This document shows, in pieces, positions 3,640 to 57,480 of a DNA stretch of 64,000 nt. The stretch spans positions 1 to 64,000 of the forward strand of contig QPGO01000255.1 of assembly GCA_008632985.1 (NCBI GenBank), given 5' to 3'. The stretch comes from Psammoneis japonica (lineage: Eukaryota). The notes beneath the pieces are model-generated. The model had not been told where the DNA came from, searched no databases, and saw nothing but the letters and a program-made list of their open reading frames with translations. The position numbers and the translations under genes were made by a program. How positions within the stretch are numbered: the first letter of the stretch is position 1; each line of letters opens with the position of its first letter.

Positions 3640-5590
3640 TTTGTTGACCCGTCGCGTTGGACAGGCAGAGCAACACCCAACTCAGGATTTGTCACTCCAT
3701 GACTCAGATGATCCAGAATCTGCAACTTCAGAGACTCCAGAGGGAGCAGAGCTTGATGAGCTCAGCAATGACAGTGACGATGAATTGCCCTTGTTGATCA
3801 TCATGACTCACATGAAGATCTAGATGTTGGTTTTGATGAAGCAGAGCCTGTGCCACCAGCTCCAAATGCTGCTGCTGCTCCCACTCGGACTTGCAATGAC
3901 CACACTGTCAAGAAACCAGATTGCATCTTCATTGAGTCCATGAAGGCCAAAATCTGCACCCCACCCAACAAGTCACACTGGCTGCACATGAAAATTCCAA
4001 ATGCTTTGTCAGGTCAGAGACATTGAACAAGCAGTTTTTGATGACACTGCATTGGGAAAGCATCACAAATGCCCTCAGATCAAAAGACTTGCGTGCTGTG
4101 ATCAAAATCTTTGACAAAAATGCTGGTCAAGAATGTGGGCGATGCACTCAAAGAAATCCAACTTGGGAAGAAGGAACAAGTGAGCCTGATTGCACAGCCC
4201 ATCTCCACCAGGCTTGTGACATCAAAGTTGACTCCCTTGCCACCAAGATTGGATGAATGTGCTCCCACCCACTTGGGCCTTTGCCCTGATTGATTCATCC
4301 AAAAATGTGATGCCAATTTTTTGTCTGTGGAGACAAGGAGCAGCTGGAAGTCATTGATCATCTGATGCTTCAGCTCTGGTTGTAAATCAGACAGCAGCCC
4401 AGCTTGTGGTCATGCTGTCTCAAATTTTGGAGATCTCTGCCAAGCAAGTCAATCATGTCACTGCTTTTGCACATGCTCCCATCAGCACGGATCCCAAATG
4501 GGGTGCCATGATGCCCAAAGAGTGGGGGTGCACTGGCGCATGTGTGCAAGGATGCTCCAAGCCTGACAAAGCACTGAAGCTCAAGAAGACCATTTGCAAT
4601 CTCAAACAAGGACCGTGCAATTTTTTTCCTGCAGCTGAAATCAAAGCTTGAAGCTGGGCTTCAATCGCAAAAGGACGTGGGCTCATGCCTCTTTGTGTCT
4701 GACAAGGTCAGAGTGCATCAACAAGGAGGTCAAAAAGTTCAAAATCAGTGGTGGTGTGTCCTTCAAAAACTCAGATTCTGCTGCATTTTCTTTTGGGCAT
4801 CCATGTCAATTGTGATGCCAACAATGGCTCAACCAAGCTGACCCAGTGTGGCCTGGTGGCCAAGTGCGCCATTGATGCTCTCAATGCAGGTGATCTCCAA
4901 AGGCCCAACACCTGCACCAGCGGCTCTGTTGGTCTGCGTTGGTCAAGGATGCTGATGAGACCCACAGAATGGAGCCCCCAGTTGTGCCAGTGTGGCTGGC
5001 ATGCTCCAGTGGTGCCTCTGAGGCCGCCCCAGGCCCCCAACGTTGTCACCTGTGCAGCTGCTGGCCCAGCAGCCAGGTTTGTTTTTGGCCCAAGCTGCTC
5101 ACATGAGCTGGCCCTCATGAGGATCAGCAAACTCATCAGGGGCTCACTTGAGGAAGAAGGTTCAGCCCCCAAGCCATCTGGGGTCTTCAGCGCCAATGTT
5201 TTTGTCAGTGCTGCTCAGAGTTTGCCGGGGCTGTGCCCTCACGAAGACAAGCAAGACCAGGCTTGTGTCAAGAGTCAATCAGGACTTGTGGCCTGCATTT
5301 CAAACTGTCCTGTCATTGAGTCTGGCAAGCTTGCACTCAAGATTGCTCTCTCCACCATGGAGGCAGAGTGCCGCCCCCTCCCCAGTTGTGCCAAAGCCGC
5401 CCTTTCCCTCCCTTTCTCTGCACCACGCAAGCCACTTCTCAAGTGCTGGAGCTGGTCTGGGAGCTGTCGAGACCACCAAGACTGCCTTGAGAGAGGGCAA
5501 TGCTGGAGCTTTAATTTTGGCCAATGTGGAACCTGGACAAATTGCACCAAGGTTGTCCCAGCTCTGCTCTGTGGTTGGCAGCTTCTTAGT
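3640..5590 (+). mobile_element. Degenerate Ty1/Copia (CoDi-like) pol: RT and RNase H remnants
   Basis: KQVNHVTAFAHAPI (consensus ~KQVDYTAAFVHAPI), LKLKKTICNLKQGPCNFF (~LKLKKSLYGLKQAPRNFF), KIALSTMEAEC (~EIALSTMEAEY) and EGNAGALILANVEPG (~EDNAGAL). Multiple stops and frameshifts. Confidence 0.85.
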
Positions 5591-5629
5591 TCAAGAGGCA
5601 GTGTCATTGCAGTGCGAGCTCATGCGTGC

Positions 5630-6990
5630 TCATGCACACAAAAATTTCGCGCTTGCACCAAATTGTTTTCCCATGGGAAAGTTGTGCTGGAATGCTTGCA
5701 GACAGGAACGGTCAGAAAGAAGATCAAGCAGTCTACGTGGTGCTGAGTGCATTGAAAGCAAACTGTTGGGTTGTTGTTGTTTGTTTGTCATCCCATTGTT
5801 TGCCAAGCAACCAGCCCTCTGGAGGCAGCAAGACAACCAAGCAAACACACCATCATGGACGACGGCAAGCACAAGCACACGACCAGACTGGGGCGTCGCG
5901 CTTGGACTCCTCTGCTCTGGGATGTCTGTCTCACTCAGACTCTGCTCTGGGATGTCTTGCTTGGACTGGACAATGACTCACCCACACTGCTTTCTCACTC
6001 CATCTGATGACAGGATGTCAACCTGTTGGATGGATTGCTCTGAAAACACAGGAGGAAGTCGTCACTGATGCCATTCAGTTTGTGGAAGAAATCATCACCA
6101 CCAATGATTGCTCAGACAAAGAACTTGCAGAGTTCTTTTCAGAGTGTTCTCAGCACCATCATGGCTGCAACAAATGCCAGCAAGCATTCTGTTGAGCACA
6201 CATGGCATCCAAACANAACAATTTGAACTTGCACAGGACATCCAAATGTGGTGTGAAAGCCACCCTGAATTCATGTCGTGGCACCAGGTGTGTCAAGGAT
6301 CCTACACGGCGAACCAAGAGCTTCCCAAGTGGGACAATCATGAATCGGTGAAAGCAGATGGAGTGGTCAATCACAAGCCTGCGCCGTCCGTGGAATCATG
6401 GCTGCTCCTTCTCATCAAGCAAAGCCACACCTGGCTGGAGAACAAGAAAGAAGGATGGGAGGAAGGCCTTCCTCATTGTGGTGCACCAATCTCAGACTTT
6501 TTCAACAAGCATTGCATGACAGCTGGTTCCTTTGTCACACGGGAAGTGCGCTCCAGGATTGAGACGGCCCTCAAGAGCGCTCCGGAGCAAGAGGAGCTTG
6601 AATTTTGCGTCCCCATGACACCACTGCCAACAATGACCCCTCATCCCACAGTGCGGCATGTTGCCTGCTGAGTCCCCCGCAGTTGTTCCCATTGCACAAG
6701 ATTTGCGTGGACGAGGTTCAAGACATGAGTCAAGCTAAGATCGGTTTGCCATTTTTGGTGAGCACAAATCACCCTGATTTTCTTTTTCTGGCTGGTGACC
6801 CTGCTCAGGCTGTGGCCCAGGGTGTTGACTTTTGTTTCAAGGTGGTCCGTTCTGTCATTCACATGATTTTTGAAGGCAGGGAGAAGATTGAGCATTGGCA
6901 AAAACTCTGCCACAACTTTTGCAGCCATGAGGGGATGTCCTGAAAGTGGCCAATTCTGCACTGGGCTGTCTTCTCAAGGCTTTCCCACAG
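5630..6990 (+). pseudogene. Degenerate fragment of a TRANK1/LBA1-like UvrD-family helicase gene
   Basis: ORF 6605..6943 reads ICVDEVQDMSQAKIGL...LFLAGDPAQAVAQGVDFCF...LCHNFCSHEG, matching UvrD motifs II/III/IV (YVDEVQD, GDxAQ, NYRS). Confidence 0.7.
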
Positions 6991-7782
6991 CAGCATTGAA
7001 GCTGGAGCATGATGCGGGACTTGTTCAGGGTGAGCTTTAAGTGTGCATCAAACTGTTGCCTTTTGCCATTCTTGAAAGCAAGCATCACTTGTCCATCTGT
7101 TGGCTTGTTTTTCCTTGTTTTGTTTGAAAGGACTCCAGCCAGGACTGCTGACCAGTGACCACAAGGAGCTGCCGAGCTTCTTTGCATTGCAGACACCAAA
7201 AAAAAGCAAAAAGAATGCTCTTCAAACCCTTGGACCACTTCAAACAGTGTTGAATGTTGGCATCTGCTTGAGCCGCCCAGCAAGCTGTTGGCACCTGCTC
7301 AAGCCACCTGGCAAGCTGTTGGCATCTGTTTGAGCCACCTTGCATGATGCAGCGTGCACTTGAGCCGTCTTGTTTGAAATGGCATGAACTTGAGCTGCAC
7401 CACATGATGTGACATTTTCCTGTGGAAACATGGACAAAAAATCAAAGGAAAACAAGAAGTTGAGAAAACTAAAAAATGCATTGAATCAACAGATTAAATC
7501 AAATGCTTTGGAGTGATGGGATCATCTTGCTGAGAATGTGAGAGAATGAAGAAACAAATTTCGGCTCCAGAGAATGTTTTCATTTGTTTTCATCATGAGC
7601 CAGTTTTTGGGTTGACAACAGCAGGTCCAATGGCATCAACACAAAATTGACAATGCTCATTTTCAGCCATGATGACCATTGTTGCAGGTGCTTTGTGTTG
7701 GTGATGTTTGTGGTGGTGGGAGAAACTGGAAACTGGCTGTTTCCATCCACACACATGCTGCTCACTGCAATGCTGTGCAATC

Positions 7783-7870
7783 ACCTGTGCTCCTGATGTG
7801 AGCACTGGTGCTAACTGTGATGCTGTGCAAGTGCCTGTGCTCCTGATGTGAGCACCGGTGCTGCACTGTG
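7783..7870. repeat. Two near-identical ~50-bp tandem copies (CCTGTGCTCCTGATGTGAGCACYGGTGCT)
   Basis: Direct reading of the sequence. Confidence 0.75.
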
Positions 7871-8559
7871 CCCCAACTGGGCTCTGTTTGTTTTGTGCTT
7901 TGCAGTGTGAATTTGAAATTTTTGACATTTTGGCCTTTTTCTGTTGTTTTCGCTTGACGTTTTGGCAAGCGTCCCGCAGTGCTGCAGCGTGCACATGTGT
8001 TTTCAAAATCACAACAATCAAAGCCAGACATCTCTGCAAAACACTGTTTTTAAAATCACAGACTCAAGTGGTGGATTGACAGCATGTGGAGGATGGCATG
8101 GAAGATGCACTTGGTGGCGGAGCACAAGGTGATTCAAGTCATTTGAAGCACAATGTGGTGATTCGATTGCAGCAACAAAGCCTTGCTCCTGCCCAAGAAC
8201 TCACATGGGTGTTGCACCACCACTTCACATGCACGTCAAAAAAAGACTGCAGTTGGACATCATTCTCTGGAGGAGTGTCACTTCAGCATTGCAGCAACGG
8301 CAATCATTTGCAGCATTTTGGTCACTGCAAGTGTGGCAAAAGAAGACAGTGCTGTCTTTTTAACAGAAATGCCAGACAGATCTAGATTGCAACAAGATGA
8401 TTGTGTGTGCAGAGTTCTTGCCGGTCAAACAGTCATGGCATTGCAGCACAAGGACAAAATGCATTGGAGCTGATCACACAGTTGCACAAAGACAGAAACA
8501 ACAGAGGCTTCCTGAAGGACTGGCAACATTTTCATGCTTGAAATGGACCTCTGCTTTCC

Positions 8560-9330
8560 CCAGTCATCACACCAAATGTGTCTGCAGACACTTGTCCAAG
8601 ATGCCACATGGTGCCCTGCATGTGCGCACTGAGGAACCCTGCTGTTTGGACCTTCCCAAGCCTGTGTGCAACTGGGCTCAAACCATGAGTGGTGGTGATG
8701 CAGAGGAACTCCTCAACCAAGACACACCCAAGCCACTTGGCAAGTTTGTTGCCATGACTCATCATGTTGATGCAAACTTGTTCCATTGCATGCTTGCCAG
8801 TGGGTGTTTCATTGTGGGCATCATTCATTTCCTCAACAAGTTTCTGGCTGGCCAACTGGTTGTTCTCCAAGAATTGAGCCACAGCCAAGACTGCAACACA
8901 TGGATCTGAGTTTGTTGCTGCCAGGACCTGTGTTGAACAGATCATTGATCTGCGCATCACTTTGCGTCACCTCAGTGTCCTGATCCATGACACCTGTCAC
9001 ATGTTCGGGGATGACAAGTCAGTTGTGGACAGTGCTGCCATCCTGCACTCCAAGCTGCACAAGCAACACACACCACCCTCTTGTTCCTTTGCATGCGCAA
9101 AGCCATTGCCTCCAGCTTCCTTGAGCTTCATTTCATTGAAGGCTCGCACAACCCAGCTGATGTCCTCAGCAAGCAGTGGGGTTGCCCCCAGATCTGGAGC
9201 CTCCTCTGCCCCCCCCCCCCCCCTCATGTTTTGGAACTTTGATCCAAGGCCTTTGTCCAATGTCCAATCTGATGTCAAATCTGTCACTGCAGACTCTTCA
9301 AGCAAGAAACTGGGGAGTGACAGGATTTGA
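8560..9330 (+). mobile_element. Second Copia family: RT C-terminus/RNase H, polypurine tract and start of the 3' LTR
   Basis: HLSKMPHGALHVRTEEP, PKPLGKFVAMTHHVDANLFH, ATHGSEFVAARTCVEQIIDLRITLRHL and HMFGDDKSVVDS..HSKLHKQH. Followed by GGGGAG (9312-9317) and TG at 9318. Confidence 0.85.
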
Positions 9331-10094
9331 CCAAGACTTCAGCTTGTTGCACATGATTCTGTGTGCTCTTGGTTCCATGCGTGGTGTGCAATGCAGTTTG
9401 CTTTGAAGCCACTCAGCTCACAAGAACAACAACAGCAGTGCTGACATCATGCCACACATCTTTCAGCTCCTGCAGTGGTCTTTGCATGGAGACTCATCTG
9501 CCATTTAGACTGCCGCAAGGACCATTGTTTTCTTCCATCCATTTCCTCCTCAATTGCTGTCAAACTGTTTTGAGCGAGTCAAAAAGATTGGCCCCAACCA
9601 ATCAAAAAAGTTGGTTTCTGGCTCTGCAGGAAATGGGGGATTGTGCAGTGGCAAAAAATGGACAGAAATCCTGCAGCTGGGAAAGCCAAGTGTGCTGCTG
9701 TTGGGGACAATGTGACCTGGGGCACAGTGCTGCAAGATCAACCTTGCAATGCCCAACAACAGCTCTTGAAGTCTTGCCCTGGGCCCATGAGAGCTGTGTC
9801 CTCAGCTTGCAGCCATCAGCTTGGCCAGCGCCACAATGGCACACTTTTGGAATGAAATGACTTGGAAATTAAAGTTTGTTGTTGCTTCATTTTGTCAACA
9901 AGCACAAAATTGTTCTGGAGCACTTGTTGAGAACACAGGATTCTTGTTGTCAAGCACAGATCAGCTCTGAACAAGAACAACAAAATTTTCCAGACAATGA
10001 AGACATTGGGGGACAGAGCAACCAACCAAGCAAACTCTGGAGTGAGGCAAAAGAAAACAGGGATGGCAATGCTGGTTTGCAGCTGCCACAACTT

Positions 10095-10230
10095 TGCAAA
10101 GTTGACAAAGTCACAAATGACAACAAAGTTGACAATGTTGCCAAAATTGCCAAACTTGACAAAGTCGCCCAAATCAGCACAGTTGCCAAAGTCAGCAAAC
10201 TTGACAAAATTGCCAAACTTGACAAAGTTG
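10095..10230. repeat. Degenerate 9-bp tandem repeat (AAAGTTGAC/AAAATTGCC)
   Basis: About 15 imperfect units, translating as KVD/KIA/KLD triplets in ORF 9876..10598. Confidence 0.75.
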
Positions 10231-10319
10231 TGCCTGCAAAAGTTTTTCTCTCTTCTGCACATGAGACAAAGTGCTTGATGATTCACACTTGGGCAAATGT
10301 TGGCTCAAATGTTGACACA

Positions 10320-10530
10320 AAAATGTCTGCAATTGCTTCATTCTTGTCAACACACACAAAACCAATCCCCCATTCCTTGTTGGCACAAGGAATGCATGCA
10401 TTGCAGATCCAAACATGGGTGGAGCATTTTGACTGTGCCCAGTTTTGCATTGTTGGTTTGGATGAAATGTCCAGCGATCCCTCCACAGCACTTTGGAACG
10501 GGTCTTGGATCATTTGGACAATCCTCCTCG
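10320..10530 (+). pseudogene. Sulfotransferase-domain C-terminal fragment, degenerate
   Basis: AQGMHALQIQTWVEHFD.AQFCIVGLDEM...ERVLDHLD resembles the xGxYxxQLxxWxxxF...xxRVxxFL segment of heparan-sulfate-type sulfotransferases. Confidence 0.5.
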
Positions 10531-11279
10531 TGTTGTTGACACTCCCCCAACTTTGGCCCAAACAATCAATGGGACTGTGGTTTGGATGCCATTGTTGACC
10601 AGGACACACTGGCTCTTTTGGCCTGGTTTTGTGAGTGGCGCAATGAGATTCTCCAATTTTTGTCGAGCTTGTTGCAAATGTTTTGTGCCTTTAGAATGGC
10701 GATTGTCACCCCAGCGTTGTGCAACTCTGTGCAGGAGGATCACAACAGCCAAATCAGTTGCTTTGTCATTGGCTCTCCACTGAAGCCAACTTCCACAACT
10801 CTGCTGGAGACACACCCTCAAGAACAATGAGGAGCAGCTTTTGTTTGTTGGTTTTTGAAAGCGGCACTTCTGGCAAGTTACTTCGAAGTAGAAGAGATTG
10901 TGAGTTGAAAAAACGCTGTGTTATGATGTGCCGCATGCAAAGTAGAAGCATTCTGTCACACACACCAATTAGAGTGTTTTGTGTTAGAGACGACTCAACG
11001 GAAATGAATCGCCGGAATCACTGAATAATGCACATTTCCCACGACCCCAAATGTCGAACATACGAAGTGTACACACAGCAATTACACAGAACTCATGTCA
11101 CAGTCTCTCCAGTCTTGAACATTGCATGCTTTTCGGTTCGACAGCGGTTTTGCCAAACGTTGACAAAAACATGAACCATGACGGCAAACCTGTCCCCTGC
11201 GTCTCTGACTCTCTTAGAGCATCGCTGAAACAAGCTCACTTTCTTTGATTCGCATTGAACGACACCTTTGAAAGCTTTT

Positions 11280-12480
11280 ACGATGACCATGACAAGCATG
11301 GTTGCGCACTCTGATGCTGCTTGCCACAAACAAGACCCGGACGCCCATCCCGAGGTCAACCTTGCCGAAGAGCAAGGCTTTGTCTCGCTTGGACGAGACA
11401 AAAAGGAGGTGAGTTGACTGCGCATTGTGTTTCAGTCGTGCAGTTTGCTGCAATCGCTTTCGTGACTTGCTCTCTCTCTGTCGCTCTCTCTTCTGTTGTG
11501 CTGTCGCTGCATCTGGTTTCTTCTCATTGTCTCACCATTTCGGTTTCATTTGATCTACAACGACTGCAGGCTCTCGAGTCATGTCTCACTTGTTTCAACA
11601 ACGAGTGGACTCTCGATGAACGCTTTGACGGGCTCTGTGGGCTGGAGATTCTTGAAATCGAGGCCATGGAGAAAGGTCAAGCCGCACCTCTGAATCTCCA
11701 AGAGAAAGAGGAGGGAGCACGCCCCGTCTCCTGGGGTGGCGACGAGCAGAAAGTTCTCGAGCACTCTCCTGTGAAAAATGTGAGTTGATCATTCAGCGCA
11801 TTGCCTTTGAGTCTCACGGCTTTGCTGTGATTAGATTGTCCTCATCTCACTGTCGCTTCCATCGAATTGCCTTTCCGCAGGTTCTCGCATCATGCATCCC
11901 AGGTGATGGGCCCTTTGCGCCAGAGATTCTTGAATGCGAGAACAACGAGACTGCTCAAGCGCATGCTCCAAAGAAAATGAAGCGACCCAGTTTTGATGAC
12001 AGCTGGGGAGAGCCAGAAGTGCTCGAGCATTCTCCTCTCAAAAATGCAAGTCATTCATTCGACATGTTGTTTGCCAGCATGCCATGTGTTTGGGGACTTG
12101 TTGTCTCATCGTCGTTCGAATTTATGTGTGTTTTCCTGCAGGTCCTCGTGTCATGCGTCCCTGCTTTGGCCGCTGAATTTTCTGCACTCAACCGGCGCAG
12201 TGCGACTGTGCCAGAACGCGAGGACAAAGAGACGGCTGAAGCAGACACGCCGATTCTTCAGAAGGAGGAAAAGCGATCCAGTTTTGATGGCTGGGGAGAG
12301 CCAGAAGTGCTCGAGCATTCTCCTCTCAAAAATGCAAGTCATTCATTCGGCATGTCATCTACAGCATGAAAGTTTCAGATTTTTTGCTGAGTTTGGGGAA
12401 TTGTTGTCTCATTGTCATTTCAATCCATGTGTTTTCCCCTGCAGGTCCTCCCGATCTTGCCTTGGGCAGTGGCTCCCAAA
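11280..12480 (+). pseudogene. Multi-exon gene remnant with three repeated exon-intron modules (WGExxVLEHSPxKN)
   Basis: The motif ends at ~11780, ~12045 and ~12335. Each copy is followed by a donor-like G(T/C)RAGT..ATTCA and later a pyrimidine-rich ..CAG acceptor. Confidence 0.55.
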
Positions 12481-12662
12481 AGGGCACGAGTGAGTGACGA
12501 GGCATCCTTGCCAAGATGGTTGTCGTTCCCTTTCTTGAAAAAGGTCAGATCCAGCAGTTGCTTGTTTGCAGGATGCTCGTCCAGGTTGTCATTCTTGAGA
12601 GCACAGACACTGGTGCCCAATGCACATTTCTCAAATGCCAAACAGATGTTGCTGGTCTTGAG

Positions 12663-12926
12663 TGCACGCATCTGATGGTCTGATGTGAGCACCTTGTGGA
12701 ATGAAATGCACTCCACTGAGCTCTTGCCAGCCTCTGCCATGACTTGGCAAAACAACTGTGCAGATTCATGGGGAGTGGATCTGCCCCTTTGCGAATGATG
12801 CACGCATCTGATGGTGTCTGATGTGAGCACCTTGTGGAATGAAATGCACTCCACTGAGCTCTTGCCAGCCTCTGCCATGACTTGGCAAAACAACTGCAGA
12901 TTCATGGGGAGTGGATCTGCCCCTTA
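12663..12926. repeat. Tandem duplication of a ~130-bp unit
   Basis: GCACGCATCTGATGG...GGATCTGCCCCTT occurs at ~12663-12789 and ~12799-12926. Confidence 0.85.
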
Positions 12927-14551
12927 GCAAATGGCACCGCTGTGAACTTGATGGTTTGTGCGCCCCTTCAAGAGGCAATTGCCTTGGCAGAACAATCCAA
13001 AGCAGGTCCAATCTCTGCATTTCCAATGGATGCAACAGTGACGCTGAGCAATTCACCAGATTGCACCACTCTCCATGGGCACAGGAGCTGCTTTGAAAGG
13101 GGCCATGCCAGTTTTGATAATTCTTTTGCCAGTCTTCTCCACTTGCTGGGTGGCATTGGCATTGATGGCCATTGTTTGTTTGTCCAGCTTGCTGTCCAAA
13201 AGGGTGGCCATTCGATCTTCCGCCGACTGCTTGGCTTTTCATGCCGCATTTGATGCCTCCAACTGTGCTTGCAACTCAAGCATTTTTTCATTGTTCCTTC
13301 TTTGCCTTGTCAGCAGCAATCTTGGCTTTTGATGTTGCATTTGATGCCTCCAGCTGTGCTCACAACTCTGCAATCTCTTGTTGTTGTTGTCCCAGCTTTG
13401 CATTTTGCTCCTTCATTTTTTGATCTTTTTCATTTTGATCCAAGCACAGGTCATCAACAAGATCTTTTGTAAAACTGGTTTTGTCTTTGATCACACTGAC
13501 TTGGATTTGTCATGCAGCTGCATCATCAGCTGCTGCCATGACCTTGCTTTCTTCCATGTGAGCCCAATGATCTGCAGACACAAAAAAGGACCATGCATCA
13601 TGCTGGGGGGTGGCGGTCCACGATGGCCACCTTCGAGCTCCCCTTTGACATCATCTTTGAAAGTTCTGATGGGCACAAGAGTGTTGATGGTAGGAGGTGT
13701 CACAGCAGACATGGGTGGTGGCTTGCTGCTGTCATTGGCACTGGCAATGTTGCTGCTGTGCACGGAAGCTGCGGGTGCTTGCAGGGCATGGTCGATCTTC
13801 CATTGCATGTGTCTGGACCGTGTGGAAGCAAAGAGCTCACAGATGGGCTTTGGGCAAGGGACATTGCACAATTCTGAAAGACCATCCTTGATCTCTTGGA
13901 CAGACCATTCCGTCTTTTGGGGGTTCTTGTGCATGACAGCTGAAATGGCTTGGTGCGTGTCGCGAGGCTCCAACTCAAACTTGCCCGATGGCTTGCGAAT
14001 GAAATTTGATCCATCAAAGCTGAAATGATTCTTCTTGACTGATCACAACTCTAACCAATCACTGTTGCATCCTTTGGTCTGAAAGTAGATGGTGTTTTGC
14101 TCGACAGATCGAGATCCAGCTTTGGCCAAACAGAAGCGCCAGGCGTCGTGCATTCGCTGATCTCTCACAACTTGCTGCAATCAACGCATCGACGGTGCGC
14201 ATGACACATTGCGTGCTGCCAACAGTGGTGACGTCCCTGTCGGGTGCCAGTTCTGCACGACAAACGCGGCGATCGGAATCCTTCGTCATGGTGGATTTGT
14301 TGTTGCTCGTTGTGTTTTTTTTTGCCGTTTGGAGATTTTGCTTGCGCCCCGCGTGTTTGACACTCGAGATTCAAAATTAAAAATAGTCTTGTACGATACT
14401 ATATGTTGTTGATTATTTCTAACGGTCAGAATAACGAGAATACGTTATCATTTCCTAACGTGACGAAGATAAATATAGAGAAAGATTTCCCCCGCATGGG
14501 TCTCAACAAAATGGAAAAAGAGGCATTATACGTTGTCAAAAACACAGCACC

Positions 14552-17500
14552 ATGTTGCGTCCACGGCATTTGCTCGCGTCGCTGGTGCTGCTCAGCATCG
14601 TCGCAGCTAGCAAGAGCGCCGAGGTGAACCATGGAGACAGACTTGTCGAGTGGCTCCGTTCCAAGGACGGCTTTGTGAGCGATAAGATCGAGATTCGAAG
14701 CGCTGCAGATCCCAACGATCCGACATCTCGAAACGGTATTTTTGCCAATGCCGACTTGGAGGAGGACGAGCTCATCATATCCGTCCCTCCCGAGTGCCTC
14801 ATTCGTTCTACTCCACCCAAGAAGGACGGTCCTCTGGCTGTGGGGGACCGAGTCGAAGGAAACTACAGAGACGAAGGCGAATGGTATCCTGGCGAGTTGA
14901 CTGCGGTTCACAGCGACGGAACCTTTGACATTCATTACGATGACGGCGACAAAGAGGCAAACGTCAAGCCGAATCTCATTCGAGATATTCGACCTGGAGA
15001 ATACGGGTCCATGGATTGTCTTACGGTCCGCAACCTGATCAAGGAAATGCGTTTGGCCGATGAGTCGCAGTTTGCACCATATGTGAACTATCTACTCGAG
15101 CAGGAACGAGGACAGTTGCCGAGTGCGTGGTCTGAACCTGCAAAGAGTCTATATTCTGAAATTTTACAAGACGGTAAAGGGCAAGTTCTCCCGCCTAGTC
15201 ATGCGGTTGACTGGATCTCCGAGACCTGGCGAAAGGTATGCAACGGCAGTAAAGACCCGTTTGAAGAAAACGCCGCGTTGCTCGTGGTGCAGCGTGGATG
15301 GGACGATATCCTTATCCCTCTCTACGACATGATGAATCATCGCAACGGATGATGGCTCAATACCAAGAGTAACTCAGTACAAGAAGTCTACGATGGAGCC
15401 GATGTAGAGGTCCGTGCGTCTCGAAAAGTACAAGCGGGAGAAGAGTTGTGCACCACCTACAACTTCTGTGAAGACTGCGGCGCAAGGCTCGAAACTTATG
15501 GCACTCCGGAGATACTCCGCGACTATGGCTTTGTTGAGCAATATCCACAGCGCTGGATTTTTCACAACCAGCGGCTTGCGTTTGATCTTGACGAGAACGA
15601 TGCTGGCGAAGTGGTGCTTTGGTGGCTCCAGGAACCGAATGAAAGGGGAATCCAATTTCTTCGACAACAGTTACAGCGACTTCAGCAGATGGATGAAACT
15701 CAGCTGTCATTAAAGCCTCACTCAATACCGGCAAATGAATGGGCACTCATCAACAAATTTCATCAAGCCATCACGAATGCAATGGGCATGCCATCAGGGA
15801 CGTGAACGGGGAAGACGACGCCTGTGCCAGCGGACAAGGCGAATGCGCCGTTTCTCTTGCTAGATATGACGATCTAGATTGGCAGGCAGACGATTTAGAA
15901 TACTCCATGTACACATGTGACACGGACGAGAGTATGGGGTTCCGCGGGTATGACTCTATCGAGACAATCCATTCACCCTACCAAAAGATACATTTCATCA
16001 AAGACCCGAAGAACAACGACGTATGTTTCGATTTGGACGGTACGTAATCACTTTTTTTTCGAAATCCCTCTTCAATTATATTCGGCAAAGACTGTTCTTT
16101 TTTTGCTTCTAATTGATTCATTCAACTCAAACTTTTTCTGACTCTTTAGACATTGTCCAAATTTGCGGAAGCTATCGCCCGCACTATCACGAAATGGTGG
16201 TTCACTACGCCGCACGTTTTCTCAAGGACATTAGGCGGGTAGTTTGGGTTGGTGGTGGTGATTCAATGCTTTTGCACGAAATCATCAAGTACCCGAACCT
16301 TGAAAAAGTCATTGGCTTAGAGCTCGACCAAAAGGTAACAAGGCACAGCTTCAAGCATTTCGGGACACAACCCCATTGGGACAATAACAAGGTCGAGTGG
16401 TGGTATGGGGACGCGACCAAGAGCCTTCTCATGCTCCCAGAAGACTATTTTGGCTCGTTTGATATGGTTCTCGTTGATCTGTCCGAGACTGTTAGTACGT
16501 ATCGAAGCGTGTCGAGTGCCTATTTCTGTCGGACCTTGTATCAAAATTCACATTCCGACTCTTTCTCTAGTGTCATTCTTGGTTACGGCAGAATTGGATG
16601 TCATGGAAGCCCTTTCACTTCTTTTGAAACCGGAAGGCATCTTTGTAAAGAATGAGCTGTACTTGGAGAAGCTGAGCAAAATATTTGACTACACTATTCA
16701 AATTCACTACTATGACACTCCTGTTATTTGCTCTCAAGCACTGATAATGGGAAGCAACAAGGTCGATTTTCTTCAACGAAATCTTACGGACCACGGAATA
16801 GAGAACCTCTACTTGCCACCGCTTGACTTGAGCAAGGATAGGTACGAGATCTTCCACGACTACAGAAGGAATCACACGAGTGTTCAAAAGCATTGCAAAG
16901 ATGTGTTGGACCCGGAGCGAGAACCGGAGGTACAAGACAAGAGCCCAGGTATTCTCATGATTCTCGAGGCTGAGAATGTCGCTGGAAAGCTTTCTCCACC
17001 GAAGGAATTGAAACATTCAGTTGAGCAGGCCCTCAAGAATGCCGGTCTTTCTGTGAAAACATCTGTATTATCGGAAGAGAAGGGTGGCATTATCTTTACT
17101 ATCCTTAAAGAAGGCTACGTGGTCGCTCGTATGTGGCCGGAGCATAAGTATTGTGCGTTTGATGTCCACTTGTGGAGTCGCTTCAGCCTCCACGACAACG
17201 TGAAGAAGGCTCTACTGGATGCCGTTCAAAGTTCTTCTTCATCTTCTTTTCGTATCGTTGCGGGAGGCATGTTTAACGTAGACTCATGGCAAGGGGACGT
17301 GAAGAGCCGTGGGCCGCGTATTACTCAATTGTGTGACCGTCCACCCGCTGTCGCACGAGATGCTGAGTTTGATCAGAAGCAAATCGATGTAGTGCTGGAT
17401 GAAACCTTGGCCCTTACCCAAGACAGTAGTTGCCTCGTTTCGATTTTATGTGGACCGGAGAAGAACGGCTGCAGCAGCTTGGATGTACTTCAGAAGAGTA

Positions 17501-18513
17501 GCAACGTCGGCGATGTGTTGGCGCTGTGGACATGTTCCGGCTTGGACAGCAATGAGTATGCCGAAGGAGTATCGAAGCAGATGTTTGAGTGCGAAAAGGA
17601 GCTTCTTGCTGCAATGAGGGGAGCAGTCGCTGAGAAAGACCAGCAAATTCGCTCAATCGTTGTAGACACCGGCGCACCTCGTGCTTCTACTCAGATCCTG
17701 CATAGAATCTTTAGCAGCAACTTCAACCGGCACGAACTGCTGACCCCGGACGTGTTGATTGTTGCACCAATGGTTAACATGGACGAAGATTGGCGAAGAC
17801 ACTTTTTGGAGCGTTTCCGGAAAGATATTATTGAATTTGAGCCTGTGTTTAGGAGCGAAGTCAAGTTCAACACATCAGACAGCAGTCTCGAGCTAGGCCT
17901 CACCTCATCGGGCGACACTCATTTCTTTCGACATTTGGTCGAATTGACGGAGAGAATCGAAAAGCTGACAGGTCTCGTATCAGAACCCCGCATTGTAGCC
18001 GGCGGCTTTTGGACATACCAAGACGACTTTGTGCCGTCTCAATTCTTTTTGCCTGGTCACTACGATCAAAGTGGACCGCTTGAACAGTTCACGAAACAGC
18101 AGCCATTGGGCCATCAAACCATCTTTCAACTGGAGGACCAGGGAGACGTTCCCAAAATACGTTGCAGCCAAGTCAAAGAGAATTTGAGTAGAGCGCTCGA
18201 AGGAGTGGCATCCGAAGGTACTGCTCGTGTGAAAGTTGATGAGTTCTCGGACGAGGGGGACGGGTGTGTTCTTCTTTCCATGTGGTCAGGAGGTTGTGCC
18301 ATTGTAACCTGGGATGGGAATATCCACATTGACATAAACCTTTTCACCTACTCGGAAAGTGTGGATGTTGCCAATAACTTTGCGGATGCCTTCAAGGCAG
18401 AGAACCCATCGTTGAAGGTCGTTCTGAGAGATGAACAACCGAGAGGGTTTGGTCGTGTTGTCAACTTTCTAAAAGATATTGAGCCACGGGCTGATCCTCA
18501 CTGGGCCACTTAA
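14552..18513 (+). CDS. Putative long-chain polyamine biosynthesis fusion: signal peptide + SET methyltransferase (with Tudor-like insert) + spermidine/spermine-synthase-like aminopropyltransferase + AdoMetDC-like domains
   Basis: Hydrophobic N-terminus. SET motifs SRNGIFA, PLYDMMNHRNG and GEELCTTY..C..C..YG. Tudor-like VGDRVEGNY..GEWYPG..FDIHYDDGD. Aminopropyltransferase VVWVGGGDSMLLHEIIKYP..IGLELD, YGDA and VLVDLSE. AdoMetDC-like EGYVVARMWPEHKYCAFDVHLW. Introns 16040-16149 and 16495-16570 restore the frame. There is an in-frame TGA at 15350 and a 1-nt frameshift at ~15786. Confidence 0.85.
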
Positions 18514-21109: not shown

Positions 21110-21630
21110 GCTTGTCCCAGGCTTGCCGTTTCAAAATTTTTGAAAATGTGGCGGGAAAAACAACGGGTTTTTCACTATCACATTTTGTGTACTTCGTGAT
21201 ACCCCGATGCTGGCGGCTGACGTCGGCCAAGCACGAGCTCCGAACTCCAAGATTTCCTTCCCTCCGCCAAAACACACACCACACCGCAGGTTTCGATCGC
21301 CAACAACATCACAGCAACAATATATAACAACGAACAGCGTTGTTTCCAAGAGCAGAAGAAGCAATACGGTATATTTGAACCGCAAGAAAACACACTGTGC
21401 ACCAGCAAAGGGATAACTTGAGTGCTCTGATACTACAGTACCGGTATTCAAAAGTGTCAGCATGACTATGCCCTGTGTTTCGTTGACCTGACGTCTCGAC
21501 TCGAGTCGACTCCGCTTGTTCTCGTGGTGGCTGTGGCATCCTTTTGTGGACCCGAAAGCAAGTCTCTCCTTGCGGCTTTACCCTTGCTCGAAAAAGACTA
21601 CGACGGGGGTTCTACCTGCTGTGATCCTGC
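21110..21630 (+). repeat. Diverged direct repeat, copy A
   Basis: Shares ordered blocks with 25600-26040: AATTTTTGAAAATGTGGCGGGA, GAGCTCCGAACTCCAAGATTTC, GTCTCGACTCGAGT and TTTACCCTTGCTCGAAAAAGACTACGAC. Confidence 0.85.
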
Positions 21631-36635: not shown

Positions 36636-36645
36636 CGACCCCTCC

Positions 36646-38822: not shown

Positions 38823-40597
38823 GAAGTGTCAAGGAAACCCTGGAGTCGATTCGAGAAGGAAACCTTTCTCCCTCGGATCTTCCACCTATACAAGTGATTG
38901 TTGGACCCAAGGATGAAAGCGGGTTGCAGTGGTACTTCTCGCTGAATAATCGGCGTTTGTGGGTACTCAAACGTTGCAGAGAGGAAGGTCTTCTGAAGAA
39001 CAATGTCATTCCTGTTCGCGTTCGTACCCCAAAAAGTGAGAGCGAAAGAAATAGATATACTCTGATTAACTGCGCAGTTGAGGCCAGATTCCTTCGAGAA
39101 ACGGAGCAATCGCGTGATGCACATTCAGACAGGAAGGACAAGTCGTTGCCGAGAGACCCTAGACAGTATGCGGCACCAAACAAGAATGTCATTGAAAAAA
39201 GCTCGCCAGACACGATGCCGTGTGAAAAGGACCAGGACGACGATGAAACGTCAGATTCTCTCAGCGACGACGTCTGCGCATATACGAATCCGTTCAACAT
39301 GTTGCTGTAGTCTCTTCTAGAGAAGTCGAAGCACTATAATTTTCTCTCTTAGCATTTACTCTTCCATAAGCTGGTATGTGTGGGCTTGCGTATCTTCAAT
39401 GCGGTCTTCATCGTGGCCGACAGATGATGATGATGTGCTGTTGCTATTGCCGCACCAGCAACAGAAGGGAAAGTGTCCTGAGCAATTACAGCTGCAACCT
39501 GACGATGGGATGAACGAGCCAGATGTCAAGTATTAGAGTCAGTTCAATTAGAGCCAATTTGGAGGTGGCACACCCTCGAGAAGAAGAAGAAAAGCCACCA
39601 CTATGTCCACGTACGTGCTGAATGCTTTAACGCCGTTTCGAAGTCTGAGGCTTCTTACCTCCAAAGACCCCCCCAATTCCTTGTCCAATACTCTTGAAGC
39701 CAGACACAACGCCGGAACCAATGGTGAGCGCACCATCCGCGGCGCCAGAAACAACAGACTCTACTCCTTGCCCCACTCCAGCCCCTACGGATGCCACCCC
39801 TTCCCCAAGTCCCGAAAGAACCGCTCTACCGTCACCAGTGGCGACTCCTTTTCCGACACCCTTGGCGATCTGTTGGGCCCCTCCTGTCACTCCGCCGAAG
39901 ACATGCCCTACACCCTTCCCATCTCCTTTGACAACCTTGCCAGCTCCAGCTCCAACTGCATACACAACAAGTTCAAACGTATGAGGTATTATTAATCGGC
40001 TAATCACGAAGATCGAGTTGCGTCATACGACTTACCGCCTTTAATGGTATTACCGACACCATCTCCAACCCCAGTAACAACACTGTTGACCCCCGCGCCA
40101 ATTGCTCTAGCTCCCACTCTGTCTGTTGCATCTTCAACACCTTGTCCCAGAGCCCCTGTCACAGCGCTAAGGCCGTCACCCAACCCTGCTCCTACCTTTT
40201 TCAACACATACCCTGCACCAGAACCCGCAATATTGCCAGTCAAACGCACGTAGTCGCCTTCTTTCCAGTTCTCGTCTCCTTCACGCGATGCGAGATACTT
40301 CCAGTCTTGAATGCTCACCGCAGTCATCAGCGTGACGAATTTCAGCTAACCGACAAGAAAGAAGTCGCCAAACGTGAGAGACGACATTCATTTTCCCGAA
40401 CAAATTCACTACGGTATGTTTTCTTACCTTGATTTTTCCAACGTAGTAAGCCTTCAGAATCTCAAAAAGGCGATCGGGAGGCCCCTTGACATTGGTCGCT
40501 TCATATCTACCGAAATTCAATTCGGCTTTGTCGATTTTGAATTTCAATCTTTTGGTAAAATAGTTCATCAGCTTAGCAAACCGCACATCTGTAAGGT
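38823..40597. repeat. Segmental duplication copy B (1,775 bp), including a 5'-truncated copy of the 31147 gene (38823-39310)
   Basis: Near-identical to copy A without the TIR insertion. Confidence 0.95.
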
Positions 40598-51088: not shown

Positions 51089-51230
51089 GAGACGTCCAGG
51101 AAAGAGGAACGTAACATTGGAATATGCGTTGAATGTCTTTCACGCACGTCATCCAAAGATTGGAACCAAAGTAAAAGCAATTGATATTTAGCGAACTGTT
51201 GGTTCCATAATTGCAGGTAACAATATGTTC

Positions 51231-52812: not shown

Positions 52813-53537
52813 ATCTTGCACACGTGTGCGCGGTCATTGGACTGTGCAGGTGTGTGTGCGTGTGTGAGGTGCAAGTGGGGTGTGCGCAGAATTGCTGCTG
52901 AGTGGCTGGCATGCCGTGGATTTTCCGCCGGTGCACAATCTGCGTGGTCTGCATGGAACATAAATTTGTGTTGGTCTCTGAGGCCATTGCATGTCATTGA
53001 TTTTGCCAAGGCCTCTGATGCGTGTGTGTGCCAACTCAAAAGTCTGACAGAACACCCCGAAAGAACTCTGGAATCTGGACAAAAAAATTTCTGTTTGGCG
53101 GTGCGAACAGGGTCGCCCCGAAGCGCTTCTCAAAACATTTCCAGATTCAATGCAGCAAAACATCTGCCATCACCAAAACAGAGTTGTTGTCGGACAAACA
53201 GATCCCGTGGTCTTCGTGCACAAACAACACGACAACGCACAACAACGCCATGGTGAGAAACGCGAACGCCGTCCCCTCATCTGCAAGCTGGGAATGCGAG
53301 ATGCTGTTGAAGTGGTTGGACAACATGCGTGCGCTGCATTCATGGGTCAAGTTGGGTTTCTTCTCGCTGCTTGTTGTTGCATCATTTTACAACGTTTTGG
53401 CCCACGCCATGTTCTTTGCTTTGTTGCTTCTGCTCGCGCGCCACCAACAGCTCTTCCTGCAGGGTGTGGCTGGTTGCACGGCTGCATTGAACCCAAACGT
53501 GCGCGACCAACTGGCCCTGCCCCAGCTGGCTCATGCA
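52813..53537 (+). repeat. Long inverted repeat, copy 1 (TpA-depleted)
   Basis: Reverse complement of 57647-58372, colinear over ~725 bp. Confidence 0.95.
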
Positions 53538-53539
53538 GT

Positions 53540-56500
53540 CATTTTCATCATCCGCGGAAAAATCGCGTGACACCCCCCAAAAATGCAGTGCCCAAAGCAC
53601 AACTTTTGACCACACGTTCGCGCAGAACTCGCCAAGTCGAAAAACCACGAAAACACGTGGGTTTCTACGCAAATCTGGTGCAAAACGAATGGCAAAGCTC
53701 TGCCTCTTCCTCTTCACACACCGGGAAAAACACCTGCACATTTGATCACAAGGTCGTTGCTGCATTCTTCTTTTCGTCATTCAACTGAACTGTTGTTGCC
53801 ATGACATCACAGACCTCCTCATCATCTGCCGGCACTGAGATTGAGCAGCCGGAAACAGTTGAATTTGCAACGGCTGCAGCTCAATGTCCTCAAGGGGAGG
53901 CAATGCCGAGAAAGAAGAATCGCTGGGGTTCAACTGTCAGTGTGGTGCTGCCGTCACCAGATGAGCACGATGTGATGCCAGTTCATCTTGGGGTGGAAGA
54001 GTGGACTCTCATGAAACAGAAACCGCCAAAAGCCAGATCAGGAAAGAAAAAACAGTTCAGTTAACACGACTGCATTGTGGACCGGCCGACCAGCAGCAAC
54101 GGTCACACCAGCTCCTCTCGTTGACCTCGGAGGCTCAATTTGTCCTCATCACATTTTCTTCTCAAAAGCGAAATTGAGAGATTGCTGGAGCTTGAAGAAT
54201 TTGAGTTTTGTGACAGAGAGAAGAAGAAGCAAATTTGCCATCGGGAAAAGGCACTCGATAAATTCGACACACGAGAAACGAAATCCCAACGAGGATCCAT
54301 TGATGCCCCTCCCTCCTGAGCCGGCACGAGATTGGAGCATTGGCGCCGGCATGCCGCTTGATGGATTCAAGGTTGTTTTGAAGCAGAGGCCCCCAGAACC
54401 AGCTCATCCAGCGCCCCTGCTTTCATCAGATGATGAGTCGTCTGTGGATGATGAAGACATGCTGGGTTGTCACAAATCTCTGGAGGATTGGAAGTCAGCA
54501 CCATGGGAAATCGATTGTGCAGTGTTTGACTTGCTCGTGGTTGCAAAGAGCATTGCGAAAGACAATGCCAGTGGTGGGGGGAGCCCTTCTTCAAATGAAA
54601 GGCAGCGCACATCCTCTGCGAGCCATGATGACCCTTTGCCAGATTGGCGCAAGAAACTGAGCGACGTTCGCATTGCTCTCTTGCAACCTGTGGTGAAGAG
54701 CACAAACAATGACTGTCTTCTCTTGGATGGCAAGCCTGCTGTTGTAACCAACTTCTCTGTGTCAATTGGGGAAGACCCTGAGAGCTTCAAATTGGGTCAC
54801 CTGAGACAGAGCGTTCTGAGCCAGGCTGCTTCGCAAGCGAAGCATCGCGGTGGACTTGGAATCAACTCCGCTCTGTTCTGCCAGACCTCAAAGGTTGACA
54901 AGCATGTGACAAGGCTCAATGGCACGGACCAAATGTGGAACTTTCTGGAGAACAAGTGCAGCAGTAAAAAGAGCAACTGCAAGTGCCAATTTCTGTGCAC
55001 ACGTCGTTTGCCATTTGCGATGGTGTCATCTCTCACCACAACATTTTCTCATTGCTGCATTTTGTGATCTGTGGTTTTGAAGATGTGTCTGTGTTCCTTG
55101 CCCTTGGCTCAAAGCACCGTGATGACGTTGACTGCGATGAGGAACAGTCGCAAATTGCCGATCCGTCGAGACATGTGAGGACTCTCACCGGAGTGGCAAC
55201 AACCGAGCTCTGTCTTCACTGGCAAAGACGGCATTCGACCCTGGTGCCAGCAACCGAAGACGTGGAAGGGCAGCTGAGAGCTTGCATTCTGTGAGCAGGG
55301 AGTGGGTTTTCAAACATCTCTGTGCGGATGAGAGCTCACCATGTCATCATGGATTCGCCAATGGAGTGCTTGCTGTGATGACAAGTTGTTTCAATGGCAA
55401 GAGGTTCCCACCGGAAAATCAACTCCCTTGGGAAAAATGGCCGTCAGGATCCAACATCTGTTGGCAATTGACCCATGTTGCTGCTTTTGCTCTGTGATTG
55501 TGGCGCGCACCTGAGCAGTCCATTCAACATGAGGCATCTGCCATTGGACCCACAACTGCAAGAGAGATTCCTTCTGATGGGAGAAATGTGTTCGTCTCAG
55601 ATGAGGATCACGTCCAAGGCAACGGCACCCAAGGTGGCCTCTGCATTGCAAGATGCCTTTTTCAACTCTGATGCATTTGCTTCAAATCAACACAGCGAGG
55701 TGTGTGCACAGCAACTGGAGGAGGATCACGCAAGTGTTTCCATCCCAGATGACCCCACTCATGAAACGGCATCAGCCATGGTGCCTGTGGCACAAGAGAC
55801 TTGTTCCAATGAAGAAACTTCTGCACCAAAACAATGCATTGGCTGGCATGGTTGAAGAATGCATGCAAGCACGAGAGCCCCTCATTGCAGGTGCCAGTGC
55901 TGCTGCTGTTCTTGTCATTGTTCCAAGGCAGTCCACTCAGATGGGAAGTGGTGCACTCAACAATGACGCCATTCAGAAGAGGGCATGTCAACGGTTTTTG
56001 CCAAAGACTTGGATCCGACAAAGCGACTGAGATTCTCGTGTCCAAACGGAGGTTCGGGAGTTTGCAGTCCCCAAAAATGGTCTTGCAGGTCGGTGCAGAA
56101 CCGGGACGCATGGGCTTTGTCGTCGTCCTTGAGTGGCTTCAAGTGATTTGCAAAGAGGAAAAAGGGGTTGGGCTTGACTGCCATGTTGGCATTCCATTTC
56201 GCACAAATTCACCCTGTCATCAACAACGTTGTTCTCTTCTGTCAAACTCGAAACCCCGTTGATGCTGACGCGTTCCAGCCCTGGGTGGGACTCCGTGTGA
56301 CATTTGGCCCGCAGAATTCTGCGTGCGAGCTCCGCAGTGCGAGAATTTAATTGATGGATGCGTTTGTCTTCAACATCAAATGAACGGCCAAGTTTGTGGT
56401 GCAATTGTGCCTCTCACCACTCGACGTTTTTGCAAATGCACCTGCCCTGCGCGATTCTTAAGACATCATAGAATCGCGCTGCAACAAAAAATGTCAAAAG

Positions 56501-57480
56501 TTTTTGGACGGATCGCTCAACAAGTGCACCGCAAAATGACACAAAATGTCAAAAAATCACGTAGAATTTTACGTGCGCGACACACGACGAGATTCAAAAA
56601 AAGGTCCCACCTGGACCTGGAACGCGTCTGCTGCCACACGGCTTCTTCAACTGTCCAACCACAATTTCGACTCTCTCATCATTGATGTTGAATTTTGCAT
56701 TGCAGCACTCTGCCCACAGGCCTGCTGGCATCCATTGACTCTGAACGCTAGAATCCAAAAACAGCCGATGCATGTGTTTTGATGCGAGCGATTTTCTGAC
56801 ATCAGACATGATGGGTTTTTGCACTTCGGCCCTCAGGGAGCTTCGCAAGTGGGTTGGTGAGGTGGGTGCAGGTCGCAGTGCAAAAAGCCATGGATTTTCA
56901 AGAAGCTGTGAGCATCATCGTCGAGAGACCGGGCACGTGACAATTCTTGTGCTTTTTGTTTTCCCGCCAACAAAATGAACTTAAACTTGGTGACGTGTTG
57001 TGCCACTTGCGTGGAAATCTGCTCCAAATTTCAAAAAATCAATTCCAGCCATGCGCATGATCACACCTGATGTCACAGAGCCTAAATTTAGCCTCTTCGA
57101 AAAAATTGGTGGTTGTTGGCCCCGTGCATGATGCAATTTTAGGCCACACGATTTTTTCAGAGGAACAGTGTTCTCGCGATGACACTGTTCCTCGCTCTGG
57201 AAATGTCACACCCCCACATCACACCCCTGGGGTCGACACACGAAACGACCCAGAAATGGCTTTTTTGATGCAACCACAGCGCTTGTGGCTGTGTCCCATC
57301 CACAACAAACCTGTGACATGATCACATGCGAGAGCTTGCTGTGTTTGGGGCGCTCTGCGTGCCGTTCTTGGCTTGTCACGATGCACAGTAATTTTGCTGA
57401 ACCTTCTCTCAATCAATTCGCGGCAGAAACTCATGCAATGAAGTTGCTTGCATGTGAGTCATGCATGAGTTTGATTTTAT
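53540..57480. other. TpA-depleted degenerate coding-like sequence of unrecognised origin (probably repeat-derived)
   Basis: Long ORF remnants that are Tyr-free and Cys/His-rich (e.g. 54075..55067). No family motif recognised. Confidence 0.4.

Follow-up and report, generated by a model that had tools for sequence, protein, structure and literature searches.

The stretch of DNA analysed here, which we call the window, comprises the first 64 kb (positions 1 to 64,000) of contig QPGO01000255.1 from the diatom Psammoneis japonica (assembly GCA_008632985.1). It carries ordinary eukaryotic genes, including VPS13, a piece of a kinesin gene and a LOG-family protein, together with six discrete blocks, occupying about one third of its length, in which the dinucleotide TpA is nearly absent. 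Our dinucleotide counts are confined to this window; the expected number of TpA was calculated from base composition, and the blocks were delimited by their TA-free gaps. An earlier reading made from the letters alone (the sequence-only reading) had proposed that such blocks stand beside genes of normal TpA content, and the sliding-window ratios for TpA, CpG and TpG/CpA bore this out. In 1-kb windows, the observed/expected ratio (O/E) of TpA is 0.00-0.07 in the blocks listed by that reading and 0.45-0.9 in the flanking genes, while those of TG and CA are 1.6-2.1 inside and ~1.0-1.3 outside. The six blocks pooled (21,649 bp) contain 65 TpA where 1375 are expected (O/E 0.05), or 863 at the TA density found outside them; the other 42,351 bp contain 1688 of 2820 (O/E 0.60). 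TpG/CpA is raised to an O/E of 1.70 across the pooled blocks, and AA and TT are without reduction (1.27 and 1.22). The longest stretch lacking TA measures 1383 bp (P ~1e-24), and the block boundaries are abrupt, with the transition taking place within ~100-200 bp. CpG is also reduced, to an O/E of 0.20-0.27 in three blocks and 0.57-0.81 in the other three. The extents given previously needed one amendment, in that depletion continues to ~60.1 kb, past the end that had been assigned to it.

Block 1 (3822-10692; 15 TpA for 452 expected; O/E of CpG 0.21, TG 1.85, CA 1.74) is composite, and includes, as judged by homology, the remnant of a Ty1/copia element. The degraded reverse transcriptase (RT)-RNase H region lies at 3996-5552 on the forward strand and carries the motifs KLKKTICNLKQ and STMEAEC, the latter standing where the RNase H motif is S-T-M-E-A-E-Y. 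The open reading frame (ORF) at 4703-5743 has 218 homologous proteins in a phmmer search (best E 4.2e-22), RVT_2 is present in five of the six top homologues scanned, and P0100, an RVT_2-bearing polyprotein, aligns to 3996-5552 by tblastn with an E of 1.3e-51. The remnant is very old (~31% identity to its relatives), and its pieces went unscored by Pfam. Further into the block, a UvrD/REP-like piece with the motif ICVDEVQD (6602-6940, forward strand) matches PF00580 weakly, at E 0.0021 and 18.2 bits for a cut-off of 23; searching its sequence against the PDB gave nothing below E 0.78. A single N is found at 6216.

Block 2 (11280-14378; TpA 10/190, CpG O/E 0.57) has no Pfam match, and blocks 2, 3 (22483-25589; 4/205, CpG 0.27), 4 (27759-30613; 7/182, CpG 0.20) and 6 (58829-60117; 13/72) have no detectable homologue. 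Block 6 is the weaker, partially depleted one, with a TpA O/E of 0.18 and a CpG O/E of 0.81. In block 5 (52962-57389; 16/274), where TpA depletion begins at ~52500 and CpG reduction is mild (0.69), the ORF at 54015-55064 found no homologue among 3453 candidates and is probably a spurious, chance ORF of stop-poor DNA; long chance ORFs are to be expected here because the DNA lacks TAA and TAG. Pfam identified no family in the 10 long block ORFs (among 22 long ORFs scanned overall), a single sub-threshold match, to UvrD, in all 182 pieces of at least 70 aa, and chance-level matches only (E at least 0.0024, below cut-off) in the 150 of the 169 pieces of 45-69 aa that precede 56912. Thus, although all eight peptide motifs quoted by the sequence-only reading are found at the places implied, its assignments fared unequally: copia is confirmed for block 1 by the phmmer and tblastn matches and the RVT_2-bearing relatives, UvrD has a match which remains below threshold, and MULE and piggyBac found no Pfam match in the 22 long ORFs, the 182 pieces or the 150 shorter ones. 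Heavy mutation may mask the MULE, piggyBac and UvrD domains.

The direction of the change can be read from an inverted repeat of ~745 bp. One copy (52813-53560, reverse strand) belongs to block 5 and has 2 TA where 41.8 are expected. The other (57629-58372, forward strand) is unmutated, having 51 TA for 55.4 expected (O/E 0.92) and ordinary TG and CA. It is housed in a TA-normal island of ~1.07 kb (57480-58550) between two depleted stretches, which is either a later insertion or a protected segment; inspection of the island edges by eye revealed no target-site duplication. Across 727 aligned columns, the 51 TpA of the normal copy became CA at 30 sites, TG at 15, CG at 2, TT at 1 and TC at 1, and were kept at 2. 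By comparison, TG is retained at 44 of 46 sites and CA at 56 of 57. The pair differs by 74 substitutions, of which 49 are A>G or T>C at TpA, nine are CpG>TpG/CpA and five are transversions, and its identity rises from 89.7% in four letters to 98.5% in a purine/pyrimidine alphabet. The same recoding disclosed no further homology among the blocks, which leaves this as the single polarising pair in the window. We conclude that the direction is loss of TpA to TpG/CpA, because the reverse would need a 727-bp ancestor with 2 TpA, and because of the protein data described below. The sequence-only reading had argued for this direction, which is the opposite of repeat-induced point mutation (RIP), and on this point the repeat pair and the copia proteins uphold it.

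Tyrosine is encoded by TAY (Y, pyrimidine; R, purine), and the copia homologues bear the mark of its loss. Among the 150 matches listed from a public representative protein library, 12 homologues are poor in Tyr and seven of these (P0104, P0137, P0146, P0178, P0197, P0199 and P0236) have no Tyr at all. At five columns where Tyr is conserved in 127 normal homologues, the 12 Tyr-poor proteins read Cys 21 times, His 10, Tyr 11 and other residues 5, while keeping conserved Phe at 29 of 35 positions and Trp at 10 of 12. P0104, which comes from an ENA environmental assembly, differs from five normal relatives by Tyr to Cys at 5-6 sites and Tyr to His at 1-3. These data settle the direction as loss of Tyr and TpA, and the 12 Tyr-poor public homologues, including the seven Tyr-free ones, have the appearance of genes predicted on DNA that is hypermutated and poor in stops. 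The excess of Cys and His that had been attributed to TpA loss does include Tyr to Cys/His changes in the homologues, and is partly due to CpG decay of Arg codons, which accounts for the R to Q, C or H changes in copia remnants. Similarly, the argument from conserved tyrosine motifs is right in kind and weaker than had been stated, given that the window copia copy has Cys at only two of four conserved-Tyr columns (C, C, L, F) or one of five (W, L, F, L, C), a shortfall we ascribe to the copy being very old and diverged.

The repeat pair also defines the sequence context. Overall, ~96% of TpA sites were lost, compared to 1-7% of A in other contexts; counted per strand, A>G changes occurred at 49 of 101 TpA, 5 of 114 ApA, 5 of 75 GpA and 1 of 102 CpA (11 of 291 for all non-TpA contexts), and C>T changes at 9 of 90 CpG and at 0 of 242 C elsewhere. 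The base following the A matters as well, since TAC (19 of 26) and TAT (18 of 34) changed more often than TAA (6 of 19) and TAG (6 of 22). At sites with T-A-Y on one strand only, it was that strand's A that changed in 19 of 25. The same test on an independent pair of metagenome contigs, L016 and L017 (see below), gave 18 of 21, a figure confounded with the strand bias in that pair. In the blocks themselves, residual TAN relative to the rest of the window is 0.17 for TAA, 0.08 for TAG, 0.03 for TAC and 0.01 for TAT, and among surviving TpA sites TTAA is enriched 7.5-fold and CTAA/TTAG 3.5-fold, with no ATAT, ATAC/GTAT or GTAC left. T-A-Y is thus mutated more readily than T-A-R. Where Tyr codons once stood, Cys outnumbers His by ~2:1, in keeping with this rule, because TAY always offers a T-A-Y on the sense strand. 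As to strands, the TG and CA counts in the copia remnant are symmetric (80/80, 78/75 and 72/71), and therefore both strands were hit, while within the repeat pair there is a 2:1 strand bias. Along the blocks, TG and CA differ only slightly and in no consistent manner, and a runs test detected no strand-coordinated tracts of TG or CA outcomes (z = 0.34).

A second, slower process, CpG decay, is superimposed on TpA loss in most blocks, yet the two are separable. Block 5 combines a TpA O/E of 0.06 with a CpG O/E of 0.69, and a tandem array at 32820-34320 (periods of 116, 161 and 314 bp) shows the converse, with a TpA O/E of 1.49 and a CpG O/E of 0.36; the losses can therefore be separated both ways. 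In the repeat pair, 49 of 51 TpA sites were altered compared to 9 of 45 CpG sites, and TpA loss is much the faster of the two. The region 32001-34000, over the array, has a GC skew of -0.245 and an AT skew of +0.209.

The sequence-only reading had described the process as aimed at repeats, and this part of it found no support: several repeats in the window keep their TpA, including the second copy of the 745-bp repeat and the tandem array at 32820-34320. A segmental duplication (31298-32514 and 38823-40039; ~99% identical) has TpA O/E values of 0.55 and 0.60, and its copies show three differences, none of them a TpA transition; the duplication is recent. It has a second part (34647-35271 = 39972-40597), and one copy is interrupted by the tandem array described above, over ~2.1 kb. 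A coding tandem array at 62437-63539, made up of seven in-frame repeats of 156 bp (52 aa) in the ORF at 60221-63892 (1223 aa, no Pfam family), has a TpA O/E of 0.54. Finally, diverged direct repeats flank block 3 (21115-21633 and 25598-26041), with TpA O/E values of 0.54 and 0.40. Read contigs connect 21544 to 25999 and return from ~25947 to 21506; depth is raised there, and the flanking repeats are therefore multi-copy in the genome. That repeats so close to the blocks are not depleted argues against sensing of duplication or homology in the manner of RIP. What determines the target would more likely be a mark carried by silenced invading DNA, or no more than how old an insertion is.

The reads available to us are one public run (X1) from the same sample, of unrecorded library type, which may be the assembly's own data. 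X1 contains 91% of the sampled words of 21500-31400, and its contigs cover the depleted blocks at word depths of 58-80 with 0-6 differences per 0.4-2.1 kb. For example, a 2099-bp contig (depth 80.5) on 22452-24550, in block 3, has two differences, a 1316-bp contig on 27336-28651 has none, and a 1207-bp contig on 24562-25768 has six. Even though the run may be that used for the assembly, the read contigs exclude an error of consensus or base calling; the check for a base-calling artefact that the sequence-only reading had called for thus turned out as hoped in that the blocks appear in the reads as assembled, with the qualification that the run is possibly not independent. Ninety-eight of the 203 placed read contigs are only 90-95% alike to the window, and therefore represent related copies elsewhere in the genome. 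Variant letters in such contigs were too few for polarising (in the blocks, one CA to TA, one TG to TA and four TG/CA to CG). Raised read-contig depth was also seen in parts of block 4 (bins 28451-28781 and 30437-30767).

Traces of the same pattern were found in other organisms. Metagenome contigs scanned with a Tyr-free copia homologue yielded 33 loci (the scan with P0104 yielded none). In none of the 33 is the matching segment saturated, its TpA O/E being 0.17 at the lowest (L021 and L022). Saturated, TpA-free sub-blocks do adjoin copia elements in two of them, namely in the last 1.2 kb of L020 (2400-3788 region; TpA O/E 0.06-0.09, TG/CA 1.54-1.60) and the first 600 bp of L022 (TpA O/E 0.04). 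L016 and L017 are copia copies from two assemblies, 97% identical with 89 differences, 39 of which are TA versus TG/CA, split 33 to 6. Two control pairs have 10 such sites among 95 differences (Fisher p = 3e-7 against L016/L017). Of the 39 hits in L016/L017, only one falls where both strands read T-A-R. We therefore believe that the process has left its traces in other environmental eukaryotes.

The signature was already in print. According to the main text of their preprint, Mettrop et al. (bioRxiv 10.64898/2026.01.13.699255) observed it in mutation-accumulation lines of Bigelowiella natans, where 231 of 302 nuclear mutations lay inside two integrated viral regions and 230 of those 231 were A to G or T to C changes, every one of them at a TpA. 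The rate was ~6e-7 per site per generation, of the order of 1000-fold above background. The genes that had lost TpA there were enriched in RT and DDE domains, and an ADAT2 homologue was put forward as the candidate enzyme. This overturns the statement in the sequence-only reading that no description was known. In our literature search it was the sole description of TpA hypermutation, with none for diatoms, and the accessible text of a 2025 preprint on diatom transposable elements (10.1101/2025.10.24.684338) does not mention TpA, hypermutation, RIP, dinucleotides or deaminases. As far as the main text of the B. natans preprint goes, the two cases share the TpA target, the TpG/CpA products, discrete regions of depletion, and clustered 1-kb windows with TpA down and CpA+TpG up. 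Using its cluster definition, 18 of the 64 1-kb windows here are counted, with clusters at 4001-11000, 22001-26000 and 28001-31000. Its RT/DDE enrichment has a parallel in the copia RT remnant of block 1. The cases differ in host, which is here a diatom (stramenopile) and there a rhizarian, and in degree, for the blocks here are saturated (O/E 0.02-0.06) and the active insert of a nucleocytoplasmic large DNA virus reported there has a Rho of 0.45. Depletion takes up ~1/3 of our window compared to 124 clusters genome-wide in B. natans, a comparison which is not a fair one since the window was chosen for the feature. Diatoms, CpG decay and a trinucleotide or 3'-neighbour preference go unmentioned in the main text of the preprint, whose supplementary tables may contain context data overlapping with our T-A-Y result. 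Lastly, ongoing mutation was observed in B. natans, and what is seen in the diatom is the scar.

Taken together, the repeat pair, the sequence context and the proteins make an A:T to G:C mutator with TA specificity the best reading, as the sequence-only reading had suggested; the deaminase which it also named stands as an inference only. More fully, we propose, with a probability of roughly 80%, that discrete parts of this diatom genome, old DNA of mobile or foreign origin, have been saturated by a DNA-level hypermutation that converts the A of 5'-TpA-3' to G on either strand and spares genes. The process may well be the same as that seen in real time in the B. natans mutation-accumulation lines. 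It would be enzymatic, a TadA/ADAT2-like adenine deaminase acting on DNA to yield inosine, which is read as G; TadA/ADAT2 would fit better than ADAR because a pyrimidine 3' of the A is preferred and UAG is not. What aims the enzyme could be a mark, either of chromatin or guided by RNA, that silenced invading DNA carries, and not sequence duplication; the outcome might serve genome defence through the destruction of Tyr and many other codons.

Several other explanations must be set against this. One starts from modified bases: uracil with a substituent at position 5 mispairs with G, and there are algae in which T is modified preferentially when an A follows. Because TpA is palindromic, all of our context results can equally be read as R-T*-A, in which a T oxidised or modified by a TET/JBP-type enzyme mispairs with G and gives T to C. 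We consider such thymine chemistry unlikely, on the grounds that the 3' pyrimidine matches the 5'-ACG context listed for TadA-type enzymes (PMC10661471) and that the sole published proposal, in the main text of Mettrop et al., is adenine deamination. We give distinctly less credence to error-prone repair by a polymerase resembling Pol eta (WA to WG; W, A or T) recruited to methylated, silenced DNA. Pol eta does make A to G errors at WA, and CpG decay co-occurs in most blocks. Such a polymerase should have altered ApA, which changed at 5 of 114 sites compared to 49 of 101 for TpA and is not diminished in the blocks (AA/TT O/E 1.27/1.22); moreover, the TpA and CpG losses are separable both ways and transversions make up only 5 of 74 substitutions. 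An ADAR-like editing of U-A in the transcripts of retroelements, made permanent when these were reverse-transcribed ahead of integration, could account for the excess of sense-strand TG over CA (30 vs 9) in the L016/L017 copia copies, and seems to us a shade less probable again. It leaves unexplained why CA products are common, why TG equals CA in the copia remnant of the window, and why composite blocks and non-coding repeat DNA are depleted with edges that are sharp and positional. In addition, the ADAR hot spot is given as 5'-UAG (PMC10661471), yet TAG and TAA are the least affected here, and the B. natans mutations are described in the preprint's main text as having arisen in situ, in single-copy viral inserts.

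The two remaining explanations question the direction of change or the sequence itself, and both appear to us scarcely credible. In one, the polarity is reversed: the TA-poor state is ancestral and RIP-like CpA to TpA change acted on the TA-rich copy, or the DNA came from a donor genome that avoids TpA. An alignment of two sequences alone does indeed not polarise the changes. The reversal would nevertheless require that a 727-bp ancestor had only 2 TpA and that 21.6 kb stood at an O/E of 0.05, and it conflicts with the ordinary TpA O/E (0.92) and TG/CA of the TA-rich copy; in addition, copia proteins need Tyr, and normal relatives have Tyr where the Tyr-poor copies have Cys or His. In the other, the blocks are an artefact of sequencing or assembly, arising for instance from long reads in which a modified base was miscalled, a suspicion nourished by the run's unrecorded library type and its origin from the sample used for the assembly. 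Set against it are the contigs at depths of 58-80 that concur with the blocks (0 differences in 1316 bp, 2 in 2099 bp), the true degradation of the block ORFs, and the recurrence of the signature in unrelated public proteins and metagenome contigs.

The proposed hypermutation of TpA in mobile DNA also has weaknesses of its own. Since TpA is palindromic, deamination of adenine is indistinguishable from a mutagenic modification of thymine on the opposite strand, and the inverted-repeat pair comes without an outgroup, so that its two sequences alone cannot polarise the changes. The strand bias is inconsistent: two pairs show it, at 2:1 to 3:1, and the saturated copia remnant does not. This bias also confounds the T-A-Y result in the metagenome pair. 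Four of the six blocks are without a recognisable homologue and block 5 has merely its repeat structure, such that a mobile origin is shown for block 1 only, and the copia copy in that block offers Cys at few of its conserved-Tyr columns, as detailed above. Lastly, the reads in support share the assembly's sample and are perhaps the very data from which it was built.

Comparison with better known systems helps to place the phenomenon. Like fungal RIP, it consists of localised, saturating transitions that wreck mobile elements and leave a dinucleotide scar. Unlike RIP, which creates TpA from CpA, it destroys TpA; and where RIP senses duplication, here a 99% identical duplication, tandem arrays and a second repeat copy stayed unmutated. 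With a TpA O/E of 0.05, no C>T change outside CpG (0 of 242) and unmutated duplicated DNA, the blocks do not fit fungal RIP. The CpG O/E of 0.20-0.27 with TG/CA excess in three blocks, together with the R to Q, C or H changes, resembles the decay of 5-methylcytosine (5mC) in methylated transposons, and methylation of transposable elements in diatoms is a subject of PMC9998398 and PMC5124317. The removal of TpA, unlike these features, is beyond the reach of CpG decay, and with TpA loss far stronger and separable we rejected 5mC-driven decay as the explanation, keeping it as a co-occurring second process. The tRNA adenosine deaminases TadA and ADAT2-ADAT3 and the TadA-derived DNA base editors likewise convert A to I, read as G, and the native substrate, an anticodon loop, has U before and a pyrimidine after the edited A (context given as 5'-ACG in PMC10661471), as in the T-A-Y preference seen here; the natural enzymes are known as RNA editors, unlike the activity supposed here, and the link is one of resemblance only. 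ADAR and APOBEC are also deaminases that hypermutate invading nucleic acids, and ADARs favour a 5' U (PMC10661471); the editing of viruses and retroelements is a subject of PMC4866542. ADAR and APOBEC differ in acting on double-stranded RNA with a preference for UAG (ADAR) or on C (APOBEC), whereas here both DNA strands are hit, TAG is disfavoured and C outside CpG is untouched.

What we add, then, is a new host lineage (diatoms), a saturated signature, TpA loss told apart from CpG decay, evidence that argues against a sensor of duplication, the preference for T-A-Y and the environmental traces. It is tempting to go further, and tentatively we raise the idea, which we think less probable than not by some way, that T-A-Y-specific adenine deamination of DNA is an old and widespread defence of algae of the stramenopile-alveolate-rhizarian (SAR) group. 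It would be found in diatoms and chlorarachniophytes and be visible in environmental assemblies, would form an A:T to G:C mirror of RIP aimed by a silencing mark and independent of cytosine methylation, would be carried out by a TadA/ADAT2-related enzyme, and would have erased much of the coding capacity of diatom mobile DNA. The diatom scar and the environmental traces do point to a broadly distributed eukaryotic genome defence, beyond a curiosity of one species.

Because genetic tools work in some diatoms, a search for the enzyme would be practical there, and the preference for T-A-Y shortens the list of candidates; if the enzyme proved to be a natural deaminase of adenine in DNA, it might be useful for base editing. 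There are also consequences for annotation. Hypermutated elements elude Pfam and repeat finders, and the transposon content of such genomes will in consequence be underestimated. At the same time, TA-free DNA, without TAA and TAG stops, yields long spurious ORFs that enter protein databases, as the Tyr-poor proteins among the copia matches listed (12 of 150) illustrate.

One of the genes in the window deserves separate mention. The ORF at 16339-18513 (forward strand, 724 aa) encodes a bacterial-type S-adenosylmethionine decarboxylase domain and has 98 relatives, the best of them at 41-47% identity. The nine relatives that carry an organism name are all from diatoms (Epithemia, Entomoneis, Corethron, Cylindrotheca, Seminavis and Thalassiosira), and the matches of this one gene thus point to a diatom host and not to Bigelowiella. 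The relatives add an aminopropyltransferase (PF01564) and often SET domains, and the ORF looks like a member of a family of polyamine-synthesis fusion proteins.

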